This document shows positions 26,785 to 31,178 of a stretch of 64,000 nucleotides of DNA, one piece after another (positions within the stretch are counted from its first letter, which is position 1; every line of letters starts with the position of its first letter). Source of the stretch: Rhabdochlamydiaceae bacterium (GTDB lineage Bacteria > Chlamydiota > Chlamydiia > Chlamydiales > Rhabdochlamydiaceae); contig JAJREF010000001.1 of the NCBI GenBank assembly GCA_047459655.1, positions 160,001 through 224,000 of the forward strand. The letters run 5' to 3'. The notes beneath the pieces are model-generated. The model did no database searches, had not been told where the DNA came from, and was given only the letters and a program-made list of their open reading frames with translations. The translations under genes were made by a program, and so were the position numbers.

Positions 26785-26913
26785 CCGCGTCAAAGCCCTG
26801 GGGTTCAGCGATCGTAAACTGGTTTATATTGATTAATACTAACCAGCTTACGATCGCTCAACCGCAGGAGCTTTCACGTGGCTACAATGTCGGTTTATAA
26901 GTGAGGATTGTAA
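26750..26913. repeat. Two inverted family-B copies (26750..26827 and about 26838..26913)
   Basis: CAATCCTCACTGATAAACCGACATTGTAGCC...CGATCGTAA pairs with TTACGATCG...GGCTACAATGTCGGTTTATAAGTGAGGATTG. Confidence 0.85.
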
Positions 26914-27772
26914 CTCTTCATTAAAATAGGGGAGAAGCTCGGGGGCTTCATTTGTAAGCCATTGCCCTAGCTGTTTTGTTTTACGCTCAAGTTCGATCTG
27001 AGCAATGACAGGATCTTTGAGAGAGTCGTCCAAGACAAAAGATCCCACATCAATAGAAATGGCCCTATTTCCCATGTAGCCATAGTTTCTTCTAAGGCCA
27101 TTATCATTATCGCGTATTCCTTGTGCCGAAGCGGTTGCGGATGTATGAGAATATACTTTGGATAAGAGTCTTGGCTCCTGCCACATCATGATTTGCAATC
27201 TGCTCTTCTATCTTAGATAAGATCCGGGGTGCATATTTTTGAACGATGAATGAAGTTCGATTGCAGGTCTAGGCGGTAGCTGATCCCTAGATTATCTACA
27301 ATTTCTACGAGTGGAAGGTCAGTAGTTGGGTTCAAGTGAAGATAGCAAACCCCTGTTTCCTCTGGAAGCTGTTCTGCTGCAATTTTACAACTTTCAAAGA
27401 CGGGATAGAATCTCTCGTTGCGCGTCTTGAGAAACTCAAAACGGTACCGTTTAAGAGATTCAGGTAAAAAAGAGTCAATGATGTGAATCAAAGCGTCGGG
27501 GATATAGTACTGTCTTTTAAAAAACTTGATCACCATGGTTTTATCTCTGATTGGCAAAGACATAAGATTGACCACCCCTATCTAAAAAATGGAAAGGCTG
27601 CGATAGGATCTTGTCTCTATCATCCAATGTAACACGACTGTTTAAAACAGCATCATAGGGAATGTTTTGATCGATAGCCATAAATGTAAAGCCTTTAGTC
27701 TTATCTTCGCAGAATGACTTTACCAAGATAAAGCCTAAGATAAAAAGAGAGAGTTTAAAGAGTTTTTTGCAT
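26848..27772 (-). CDS. Signal-anchored kinase-like protein, paralogue E (frameshifted; start approximate)
   Basis: QPFHFLDRGGQ, VIKFF, GIRDNDNGLRRNYG and IDVGSF over three ORFs. Confidence 0.7.
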
Positions 27773-28564
27773 TTGTTGATCAAAGTAGGCCACATAATCT
27801 GGTTGGTTATTTTGCAGGTGCTGTCTTACACCTAAGAGCTGTAAAGATAATGTCCTCTGAAAACCTGGATAGAAGGCAACCCGAGGATCTTTTTTAAGGG
27901 ATCCAAAATCAATGAGCATGACCCTATCTCCGATTACTCCAAAGTTACGCTTAATCATTGGATCTAAATTAACAATCCCTTTTAAAGCAAGAGTAGAGGT
28001 AAGCTCAACCATCCCATCTATGGAATCATGCGAAAGGGGAGAAGTAAGAAGAGCTGCTTTTTTTTGGAGTAAAAATTGTGTAGCTCCAAGCTCAACCTGA
28101 TGAGCAATACCCAGCTTGTCGAAGAGTGTTATAGAAGCTGAAGGCTGATTCTTAAGATAGGTTCCAATAACTCCTGTTTCTTGTGCGATTTCTTCAGAGG
28201 CAATCCTGCAACTCTCGATTAGTTCCTCGAGTCTTTTTTTCCGCTTTTCCAAGTAAAGATTTCGCAGATTGGTTAAGGGAGCAGGAAGAGATAAGTTAGC
28301 AAGAAAGGGAAGGGGTCTCCGTCTACTCTGCTTGATGAATTTGATGACCGTTGTGCCATCTTCACTCTCAAAAGCATAAAACTGCTTGCCCGATCCCAAA
28401 AAATAAAAAGGCTGCGTGCATATGGTAGGAGTTTCTAAAGAAGATTGAGAGGGTGTTCCACTGATGATTTTAGAGGGAGTAAATCCTTCTGTCTGCGAGT
28501 AGCAGAACCTCTCAGAGATTACAAAAAACAAGATAAAAAGAGAAATTTTTTTCCAAGCCTTCAC
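27755..28564 (-). CDS. Signal-anchored kinase-like protein, paralogue D (intact)
   Basis: QPFYFLGSGKQ, VIKFI, GIVNLDPMIKRNFG and IDFGSL. Confidence 0.8.
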   Translation of the reverse strand: MKAWKKISLFILFFVISERFCYSQTEGFTPSKIISGTPSQSSLETPTICTQPFYFLGSGKQFYAFESEDGTTVIKFIKQSRRRPLPFLANLSLPAPLTNLRNLYLEKRKKRLEELIESCRIASEEIAQETGVIGTYLKNQPSASITLFDKLGIAHQVELGATQFLLQKKAALLTSPLSHDSIDGMVELTSTLALKGIVNLDPMIKRNFGVIGDRVMLIDFGSLKKDPRVAFYPGFQRTLSLQLLGVRQHLQNNQPDYVAYFDQQMQKTL

Positions 28565-29302
28565 AGCTCTACCTCTGGGTAGTTGATCTTAACCCATGAG
28601 ACAAATTTTTCTGGATATTCTGCTTTTTGAACAGGAGCGTTCACAAATTTTCCTGGGTCTAAGAAACAGGGTTTACCATCGATGAAGCCGAGGTTTTGAG
28701 CTAGGTGGCTATCTGTATCATCAATCGCATGGCTTCTTCTAATTTCCATAAGAACTTTCAGAGATTCAAAAACCGCCTGAATATTACTTGCGTGCGTAAG
28801 GTAGGAGTAAAGAGGCTCCCCCTTTTTCTGTATTGCAAAAGGGTCTTCTGCAAGGGGAGCTGATGTTGAATACCTAATTTATCTACAAGGTTTACGGTTT
28901 GATCAAAGGCGTTTTCAGTGTCCAATTTTAAAAAGATCAGCCCTGATTCCTCTGGAATTCTTTCAAAAGCAAGCAGGTAACCTTCGATATCACGGATCAG
29001 CTTGCTTATTTTTTTGTGTGGTATTTTTTTAAGGGGAACAAAAGCATTGGGGCTGTTTTTGAAAATTTGATCACATACTTTTGATCTTCAGAGACAAACA
29101 CAAACGACTGGCCACCTCTTGCAAGGTAATAAAACGGTTGCTTCAAAATTTCTTTCGTTACAAGAGCATTGCCGTGATTAGTAAAAGGAAGTGGAGGGGC
29201 TGCATTGATTCTTCTTATGGAAAAGCCTTCTGTTTCTTTTTCACAGAATAAAGAAACGACATAAAATAAAATAAAAAAGACTGTAAATTTAAGATACCGC
29301 AT
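28561..29302 (-). CDS. Signal-anchored kinase-like protein, paralogue C (frameshifted)
   Basis: QPFYYLARGGQ, YVIKF, AIDDTDSHLAQNLG and LDPGKF. Confidence 0.72.
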
Positions 29303-29494
29303 TCATTTAGAATAGCAGAGAAGCAAAAGATTTTCAAAGTTTTTATCAAGAACCCTTAGTCACCCAAGAGGTCTGTAATAAAATGGCAGGCCGTTTTCTT
29401 TAAATCTTTATACTGCTTTAACATTTTTTCTTTGTACATAAAAAAAGAATAGTTAAGACAATCAAAGCTAACAAAAATAACCTAAATAATAATT

Positions 29495-30333
29495 TCAACA
29501 TGAGGAAAGCTCCTGCAAAAGATGGTGATCTAAAGAGGGGTAATCTTAGAGAGTCTCTGATGAAGGCATTCAGTAACCCTCCGAATTTCCTCTTTTTGCT
29601 CAAGTAAAGTTTCTTTTTTTAAACTGCCGACATCTAGCTCGATTGTTTGCTGGTCTAGACATCCAAAATTTTTAAAAAGATCGACATCGGTATTGACAAT
29701 CCCTTTTTGATATTGTTTAGTCAGAAGAGATACCAAGTGGGAAATAAGGTGTTTTGCCTCTTCTTCTTTTTGCTCGTCCATTAACCTTTTCAGGTGAGGG
29801 TAAAGGGGGTTTACTCGTTTTTGCAGGATAAAGTCTGTAGAATCCAGATCCAGTGTGTGGGCAATCCCAATTTTATCCACAATGACAAGCTTCTGATCGA
29901 AGAAGTCAGTCTTATTGAGATGAAGAAAAAGAAGGCCCGTTTCCTCACTTAAGTCTTCATAGGCAATTTTATAGCTTGTAAAATCTCTTTCTAACTTTCC
30001 TTCTAATGCCTTGCCCTTATCAGGGGAGGCTAGCTTTTCCCATATAGAGGGCCTAAGATGATTATAGCGAATAAGTTTAATCACGTATTGCTGATCTGCA
30101 GAAACAAAAACGAAAGCCTGAGAGCCTTTTCCGAAGTAAGAAAAAGGCTGGTCAAGAGCTTTTTTTATCGCAGCTAGCTTTCCTTTTTGTGGAATAGGCA
30201 CCTCCCACGCGGCATTAAACGGAAGATTAGATGAGATCTTACAGATCTGAAAGCCATCCAACTCTTTTCTAGAAAAGAGCGACATCCCTACAAAGACAGC
30301 TATAAAAATAATGCTCTTAATGAAGTATTTCAC
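29495..30333 (-). CDS. Signal-anchored kinase-like protein, paralogue B
   Basis: QPFSYFGKGSQ, YVIKL, GIVNTDVDLFKNFG and LDVGSL. In-frame stop at 29530; a likely frameshifted tail (SLDHHLLQELSSC*) extends to 29495. Confidence 0.75.
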
Positions 30334-31178
30334 ATTGCCTTTCTAGCTCCTCACAGAGCGTCTTATATTCTTTTTGCAAGCTCATATGGAGCTTATCTGT
30401 AATCCTGATGATTTCATCTTTGTATTTTTGAGGATCACTTTCAGAAGGATCTTTTTTGAATCGACCCGGATCGATCTGAATCGGTTTGCCATTAACAACC
30501 CCAAAGTTGGTAAAAAGATCAGGATCTTTATCAAAAATTCCTTTTTGACAACGTGTCACAAGTAGAGCAATTAAACGAGATAAAAGCTCCTTTGCCTCTT
30601 GCTCTTGCCCCTTATTCATCATGCTTTGCAAAGTAGGGTAGAGGAGATCTGCCTTCTTTTGCACCACAAACTCAAGCTCATCTAGGAATAGAAAATGGGA
30701 AATTCCCAATTTGTCGATCAATTCAATCTTCTGCTGCAAAATATCTGTTTTATTTAAATGGAGGTAGATTAGCCCTGTCTCTCTCTCATATGGTCGTAGG
30801 CTATTTTATAGCTTGTAAAATCTTGCTCCAATTTCGCCTCTAGCCTTGCCACACGCTGCCGAGTTCTTTCAAAAGGTAGCTTTTTTAAAAATGGAGCTTC
30901 TCCCATATGGTCATATCTAAAGAATTTAATGACATAATGCCCATCTTCTGAGCCAAAGACAAATGACTGGGCCCCTTTTCCTAAATATCTAAAAGGTTGG
31001 TCCAAAACTTTTTTTACTCCCACGATATCTTCTGCTCTCAAAGCCTCGACTTCCCACTCAGGATGAAAGGGTAAAGAAGAGCAGATCTTGTCTACCCGAA
31101 AGCCATCCGTCTGCTTTTTACAAAAAAAGCAACACCTACGAAACCGCAGATCAAAAGAATTGATTTAAGCCATCTCAT
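30317..31178 (-). CDS. Signal-anchored kinase-like protein, paralogue A (frameshifted)
   Basis: Starts MRWLKSILLICGFVGVAFF; QPFRYLGKGAQ, YVIKFF, GIFDKDPDLFTNFG and IDPGRF. Confidence 0.75.

Follow-up and report, generated by a model that had tools for sequence, protein, structure and literature searches.

A 64,000-nucleotide stretch of a Rhabdochlamydiaceae genome (contig JAJREF010000001.1 of assembly GCA_047459655.1, positions 160,001 to 224,000; hereafter, the window) carries at 26848-31178 five co-oriented minus-strand paralogues, A to E, delimited by three-frame translation. We conclude that the family to which they belong is, on its predicted structure, a member of the kinase superfamily that lies outside any curated family, since the modelled fold is that of a kinase and sequence searches of Pfam, NCBIfam and the PDB gave no match. 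Our best explanation, to which we assign a probability of about 0.35, is that these proteins are periplasm-facing kinases of lipopolysaccharide (LPS) or surface glycan. Kinase-fold enzymes would be anchored in the inner membrane with their domain in the periplasm, host-derived ATP bound for the translocases would serve as the phosphate donor, and the bacterium's own envelope would be phosphorylated, most likely its LPS or another surface glycan, perhaps with one substrate position per subfamily. The glycan substrate is the weakest step of this explanation. What is new here is a lipobox-bearing subfamily, a link to AceK, a pattern of heptosyltransferase and WaaP-type genes, and a second anchored family, which we call A6.

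A kinase fold with an intact catalytic site

An AlphaFold model built from a 63-sequence alignment (predicted local distance difference test, 94.9; predicted template modelling score, 0.89) shows an N-terminal helix (residues 2-24) followed by the two lobes of a kinase, of which the N-lobe has an additional hairpin (148-162) and the C-lobe is short. Every match listed by Foldseek and by the VIA structure comparison is a kinase-fold protein. The Foldseek leaders are RIO2, RIO1, AceK, phosphorylase kinase, WbdD, COQ8A and PRPK (E 3e-5 to 7e-4; template modelling score [TM] about 0.4), and VIA returns a flat list of kinases (Z 9-11; root-mean-square deviation [rmsd] 3-4). When a lipobox member was used for an Atlas structure search, three unnamed Chlamydiota clusters came out on top (TM 0.82-0.90), and the next named ones were AceK (0.60), Pkinase (0.59) and RIO/Bud32 (0.52-0.56).

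Conservation was measured in 337 sequences: open reading frames of at least 230 amino acids (aa) at 88 loci, together with B and D. Shorter frames and two duplicate loci were dropped. Residues G70, K86, D216, N222, D234 and G236 are kept in 99-100% of these, as are F28, F76, F168 and Q171, and the catalytic residues are kept in all 11 subfamilies printed. An earlier note on this DNA, made from the letters alone, had read a minimal kinase with invariant catalytic residues and had recognized no characterized family; the model, the structure matches, the conservation and the family-library searches bear it out on these points. Subfamilies differ in the five residues that separate D216 from N222, as would be expected if the paralogues differ in substrate. 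In the alignment, helix alphaC has no conserved acid in the columns before Ser120; Glu131, at the helix end, is conserved in 83%. From these sequences we infer that the kinase-fold proteins probably carry out ATP-dependent phosphotransfer.

A lipoprotein subfamily and the side of the membrane

The N terminus of the family is basic, then hydrophobic, and then reads (E/A)RFCxxxTxGF, with the F of this anchor-proximal motif conserved at 99%, the T at 86% and the G at 82%. The most telling evidence on topology comes from the genome family f19, in which one subfamily has, in place of the anchor, a canonical lipobox after the uncharged stretch, directly before GF, in 19/21 of the closest orthologues (those with at least 42% identity; 19/30 of all loci returned). 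The lipobox occurs in 0/19 of the neighbouring paralogues and in only 3/542 sequences of an earlier set. Catalytic loop and DxG motifs are intact in all 19 lipobox proteins, which fall in tree group 4 alongside anchored paralogues, and the lipobox paralogue shares about 39% identity with an anchored paralogue. Most simply, a kinase domain that follows such a conserved lipoprotein signal would lie outside the cytoplasm. The anchored paralogues probably face outward as well, and we consider it a good deal better than an even bet that they do; the earlier note's placement of the domain outside the cytoplasm is upheld to that degree. For the window's own proteins, we infer an N-in/C-out topology.

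In Gram-negative envelopes, extracytoplasmic modification of LPS or protein, as by LpxT and EptA, is thought to use lipid-linked phosphate donors, ATP being scarce there, and the earlier note had likewise remarked that ATP is not normally available outside. The paradox loses force in view of the TLC-family nucleotide translocases (best E 8e-215) that the genome of the window (5 contigs totalling 1.61 Mb; completeness, 81.6%) encodes. PMC8242063 places Ntp1 in 98% of chlamydial genomes, and PMC7432876 has external ATP entering the E. coli periplasm. Host ATP would have to cross the periplasm to reach translocases in the inner membrane. This route leaves the distribution of the family unexplained, since Chlamydiaceae also import ATP.

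An old, ordered locus

A search with the family profile finds 2,581 clusters at 50% identity and matches 220/300 Chlamydiota genomes, so that most environmental chlamydiae carry the family. Carriers make up 59/62 genomes of f1, 46/46 of f5, 32/32 of f18, 24/26 of f19 and 17/18 of f15, and the non-carriers include f16 (0/29; genomes of 1.0-1.3 Mb, putative Chlamydiaceae), f23 (0/7), f20 (0/5) and f24 (0/4). A broader profile matched 0/56 negatives and 5/5 weak positives. Copies per locus range from 1 to 8, most commonly 5 (70 loci), and two single-copy genomes (L206, L207) have their gene at the same locus. A same-genus genome, G002, has an intact array of 285, 277, 265, 267 and 299 aa, whose members are 33-50% identical to one another and which is followed by Dus, YhhQ, Tgt, Tdk and GNAT genes, the same as in the window.

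The conserved synteny across Chlamydiota for which the earlier note had proposed to look is there: with subfamilies defined by tree, and groups 1 and 8 merged, relative order is kept in 637/638 pairs. The same-genus array reads 8-8-2-0-6, and in the window B falls in group 8 and D in group 0. Adjacent paralogues lie within 30 nt of each other in 207/225 pairs when the first possible start is used. Fixed order can arise from tandem duplication without rearrangement. That several subfamilies persist from genus to genus with their active sites intact nevertheless suggests that each has a job of its own. The ratio of nonsynonymous to synonymous substitution (omega) is 0.09-0.22 for the paralogues (7/9 pairs; 2 saturated) versus 0.03-0.08 for their neighbours. 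It is this combination of conserved locus, fixed order and purifying selection that leads us to a role in the bacterium's own envelope.

No plasmid match was found for the family, and no longer fusions were seen among proteins of 584-2000 aa, which is weak evidence; proteins with two tandem family domains do exist (P0065-P0067). A literature search found no description of the family, with subscription papers and supplements, which could list members as hypothetical proteins, outside its coverage; the accessible parts of PMC9758233 (where "chlamyd" occurs 0 times), bioRxiv 10.64898/2026.09.18.752743, PMC8242063, PMC2811131 and PMC7432876 do not describe it either. Members occur in families that appear to include cultured species, and the proposal is testable there.

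Leads to a glycan substrate

The Kdo/WaaP family phosphorylates the heptose-type LPS core elsewhere. Heptosyltransferase-family (GT9) genes are present in 218/220 carriers, and f16 has neither GT9 nor the kinase-fold family; in f35, 5 of the 11 genomes are GT9-positive, and these include all 4 carriers. The Kdo/WaaP family itself occurs in 8/301 genomes, its five long matches all in non-carriers (lenient PF06293 matches in 31/43 genomes, mostly short and within 400-700 aa frames, were left uncounted). Two non-carrier groups, f23 and f2, have tandem N-terminally anchored Kdo/WaaP-like kinases of 270-300 aa, built like the array studied here. This A6 family is found in 11/301 genomes (G019, G206, G127, G117, G225, G074, G197, G209, G246, G280 and G241; loci L169-L174 and L194-L201), with six strong matches in non-carriers and five weaker ones in carriers. 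As a test of common origin, A6 was compared with the kinase-fold family and reaches a probability of 5-22% in local alignment, 15% and 7% with the anchors removed, and 70% in global alignment with the anchors included. Genes for GT2 enzymes adjoin 9/54 arrays and stand directly behind the gene in G209. The earlier suggestion of an envelope glycan kinase stays a lead, through the indirect evidence of GT9, WaaP and A6 co-distribution.

A6 arrays have 2-4 members; those of f2 and f35 have in common a position close to Lon, a cytidylyltransferase-like gene and RNase Z. The A6 alphaC motif is of a Trp-preceding Ser/Asn type.

A number of observations weigh against periplasm-facing glycan kinases. 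With regard to topology, the uncharged stretch has a median of only 15 residues (22 in MlaD), the net charge after the hydrophobic stretch is +1.5, and the test of topology by flank charge fails its MlaD control and so carries little weight. The window-type cysteine of the F-C motif was considered as a lipobox or disulphide residue and rejected, with a lipobox in 0/223 and no bias toward even cysteine numbers (49-53%). As for the substrate, GT9 occurs without the kinase-fold family in 43 genomes, and the GT9 overlap rests on few losses among kin; clean mutual exclusion of A6 and the family was rejected, both being present in 5/11 A6 genomes; and the arrays lie outside LPS gene clusters. WaaP is absent among the listed fold matches. 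In a profile comparison with AceK plus six other proteins of kinase fold from E. coli or chlamydiae (background, 30 shuffles of AceK), E. coli WaaP (12.4) and WaaY (14.6) are at background, and sequence comparison favours AceK, a protein kinase, which scores 26.8 versus a shuffled maximum of 18.8 and 12-19 for the other six.

A wider statement of the proposal, which we rate at somewhat less than an even chance, is that environmental chlamydiae phosphorylate their envelope in the periplasm or at the surface with host ATP by means of an AceK-related family, that some lineages use a second, Kdo/WaaP-like anchored family, and that the system disappeared from the animal-pathogenic Chlamydiaceae along with their genes for a heptose-type LPS core. 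If true, catalytically complete anchored kinases, lipoproteins among them, would show that ATP parasites have lifted the periplasmic ATP limit; the kinase superfamily would also gain a family, and environmental chlamydiae would be set apart from Chlamydiaceae by a feature of the envelope.

Nearest relatives and rival readings

By sequence profiles and models, the nearest characterized relatives are probably the kinase lobe of AceK and RIO/Bud32, with OspG/NleH not among the listed matches. The AceK likeness bears on the rival that survives best, though we find it rather unlikely: that these are outward-facing protein kinases, possibly AceK-like kinase/phosphatases, with periplasmic or outer-membrane protein targets and one target class per subfamily. 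In its favour, AceK (kinase domain, PF06315) is the best of 7 in the profile comparison, where the C-lobe aligns over 116 columns with an NFG loop and a C-terminal RHWL..P.L helix in common; in one VIA list no alignment is longer than that to AceK (192 residues, with Z 10.2 and rmsd 4.0), and no named Atlas cluster has a higher TM (0.60); 1/63 and 1/66 members match Pfam AceK_kinase, weakly (E 0.07 and 0.03); and the lipobox evidence for export fits protein targets too. The signal is nevertheless faint, with an hhalign probability of only 3.6% (E 0.012), a Z tied with those of many kinases, and Pfam scores far below the cut-off. Unlike AceK, which has D-x4-N and YDYD, the family has D-x5-N and DxG, an N-terminal membrane anchor or lipobox and multigene arrays; its proteins, of 250-330 aa with the anchor, have neither the AceK regulatory domain nor an activation segment. 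The upstream neighbour U1, described below, is an Ig-like sandwich and not a phosphopeptide reader, and it is missing from f18 and f15.

An unlikely alternative, in our judgement, is that the N-terminal helix holds the enzyme on the cytoplasmic side of the inner membrane, where it would phosphorylate LPS-core or lipid-linked precursors like WaaP/WaaY, and that only the lipobox subfamily has moved outside. The short hydrophobic stretch, the positive charge after it and the lack of a disulphide signature all suit such a tether, ATP would need no special source, the overlap with GT9 and the rarity of WaaP fit equally well, and the neighbouring GT2 enzymes have similar N-termini. However, most basic residues come ahead of the hydrophobic stretch (248/337 sequences are more positive on its N side, and 35/337 show the reverse), and a paralogue with a lipobox, about 39% identity and intact catalytic residues would require a change of compartment. 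The LPS kinases WaaP/WaaY/KdkA (PF06293, PF06176) and WbdD share the small kinase fold and a matching genomic niche; WbdD stands at Foldseek rank 14, and WaaY/Kdo clusters are among the Atlas feature leads under 0.9. The family has no Pfam match to PF06293 or PF06176, and the window's genome has no PF06293 match at 1e-8. WaaP and WaaY are cytoplasmic, in contrast to the probable location of this family, and are encoded in waa clusters (the E. coli cluster being the one shown).

It is improbable that the proteins are exported via Sec and then by type II secretion or vesicles to phosphorylate host molecules. The minimal effector kinases OspG/NleH/HopBF1 have a truncated C-lobe, which the short C-lobe of the family resembles, and type III effectors are not known to have Sec-type anchors. 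Export to the host would account for the expansion of paralogues and for their faster evolution relative to housekeeping genes, and several secretins are encoded in the window's genome. Set against this are the fixed locus and order across genera, in 220/300 genomes of many families, the lack of any gene-wide omega near 1, and a conserved anchor-proximal motif and lipid anchoring, which suggest retention in the envelope. OspG/NleH is not among the listed fold matches. An old, ordered housekeeping locus under purifying selection argues against host effectors, and the host-directed, OspG/NleH-like option that the earlier note had raised is not supported.

RIO1/RIO2 and Bud32/PRPK, which are cytoplasmic ribosome or tRNA factors, share with the family a short C-lobe without an activation segment and a GxGxE/Q glycine loop, and RIO holds the top Foldseek ranks (E 3e-5, TM about 0.40-0.44); identity is 12-16%, and the family differs in its extra N-lobe hairpin and membrane anchor. 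Pfam RIO1 has no members among the matches listed (25/34 families shown in one scan). YrbL (PF10707) heads the named Atlas feature leads, with 138-140 features in common and a score of 0.87-0.88 that falls below the 0.9 bar, but E. coli YrbL is at background in the profile comparison (12.5) and has no anchor. E. coli UbiB is also at background (13.6), an ABC1/UbiB HADPHxGN-type loop was looked for in the family and not found, and COQ8/Rv3197 appear only as lower Foldseek rows. It is as improbable as export to the host that the proteins are RIO/Bud32/UbiB-like ATPases or membrane-complex subunits rather than phosphotransferases: the RIO1/RIO2 ranks, the tight packing of adjacent genes and the Ser120 in place of the usual alphaC acid speak for it, but the single-copy genomes show that a fixed heteromer is not required.

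The array in the window

Homology of the five paralogues is far beyond chance, with profile E-values down to 5e-105. Paralogue A (30317-31178; subfamily 1/8), a kinase-fold protein with an N-terminal anchor, has one frame break near 30772-30781, and intact orthologues of 282-285 aa occur at loci L084 and L085. Paralogue B (approximately 29495 to 30333; subfamily 8) has an open frame at 29530-30333 (267 aa) and homology that runs about 10 codons further in a different frame. Paralogue C (28561-29302) is assigned to subfamily 2 by orthology and has two frame breaks, D (27755-28564; subfamily 0) is intact at 269 aa, and E (26848 to about 27795), of subfamily 6 by orthology, has three. All five, as the earlier note had read them, are co-oriented and have F(C/S)...GF, QPF..xGxQ, VIK, D-x5-N and D(P/V/P/F/V)G; the D-x5-N loops are DPDLFTN in A, DVDLFKN in B, DSHLAQN in C, DPMIKRN in D and DNGLRRN in E. 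The note's mostly overlapping ends hold for A/B, C/D and D/E but not for B and C, between which lies a 46-codon open reading frame. Outside the array, the genome encodes two stand-alone intact paralogues (C3:21980-22675 and C5:5586-6440).

As assembled, only D is unbroken. Searches by tblastn with intact same-genus orthologues give one frame change in A, two in C and three in E; with B, which leaves frame about 10 residues before its end, the array has seven breaks. Seven breaks in 4.3 kb, versus 2.4 expected (P 0.04, computed for six), would suit an array that is decaying in this genome alone, which we hold to be just as improbable as the ATPase or subunit role. Among control genes of the same genome, however, 29/69 are frame-changed relative to orthologues (0.56 per kb), including essential ones that are DnaA-, RpoA- and tRNA-synthetase-like by names assigned from reading the sequences. 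Near-identical short contigs from runs X4 and X5 have a one-base difference at three of the breaks, and run X1 differs by one base at three places in which the window keeps its frame; all of these comparisons are with single low-depth contigs. Purifying selection acts on B and D (omega 0.17 and 0.22). Most of the breaks are more likely to be assembly errors than signs of local decay.

The reading frame between B and C (29356-29501, minus strand) would encode a small single-helix membrane protein and is frame-broken in the window; it is intact, at 46 aa, at two same-genus loci (L014, L015). Its product would end in a basic amphipathic tail. It was found in 2/13 wide gaps checked and, among the arrays examined, only in this genus. 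A sigma-70-like promoter match (31186-31214, minus strand; 10/12 positions) ends 8 nt before the start of A, and such sites are at chance level across the region (11 found versus 8.9 expected).

Neighbouring genes and repeats

The gene upstream of the array, U1 (32499-33310, minus strand; one frame break), encodes a protein with a signal-peptide-like N terminus and a predicted tandem immunoglobulin/fibronectin type III (Ig/FnIII)-like sandwich. It is a conserved, probably exported protein, present in single copy in 142/301 Chlamydiota genomes (f1, f5, f19, f26, f33 and f35) and without a Pfam match. Usually directly upstream of the array, it adjoins 42/54 arrays (YhhQ, 28/54) and is missing from the carrier families f18 (0/32) and f15 (0/18). 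U1 was considered as a phosphopeptide-binding, FHA-type partner and rejected, as its model is tandem Ig/FnIII-like, with TM of 0.2-0.3 and no FHA among the matches listed.

A palindromic dispersed repeat of 170 bp, resembling miniature inverted-repeat transposable elements or repetitive extragenic palindromes, folds at z -7 and has no Rfam match. One copy (31224-31393) lies directly upstream of the promoter-like site of the array, and others are at 1148-1318, 2937-3436, 19891-20061, 40221-40390 and 62311-62480. In the whole genome the repeat gives 183 BLAST pieces, about 100 of them near full length (both orientations counted), some in tandem.

U4 (38147-40224) is a large conserved hypothetical protein of about 690 aa in relatives, split in the window and without a Pfam match; it adjoins a PiT transporter and mla genes and is near 31/70 loci. 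Several records titled Verrucomicrobia or Acidobacteria, among loci L016-L083, show the full chlamydial context, and their titles are probably misassigned.

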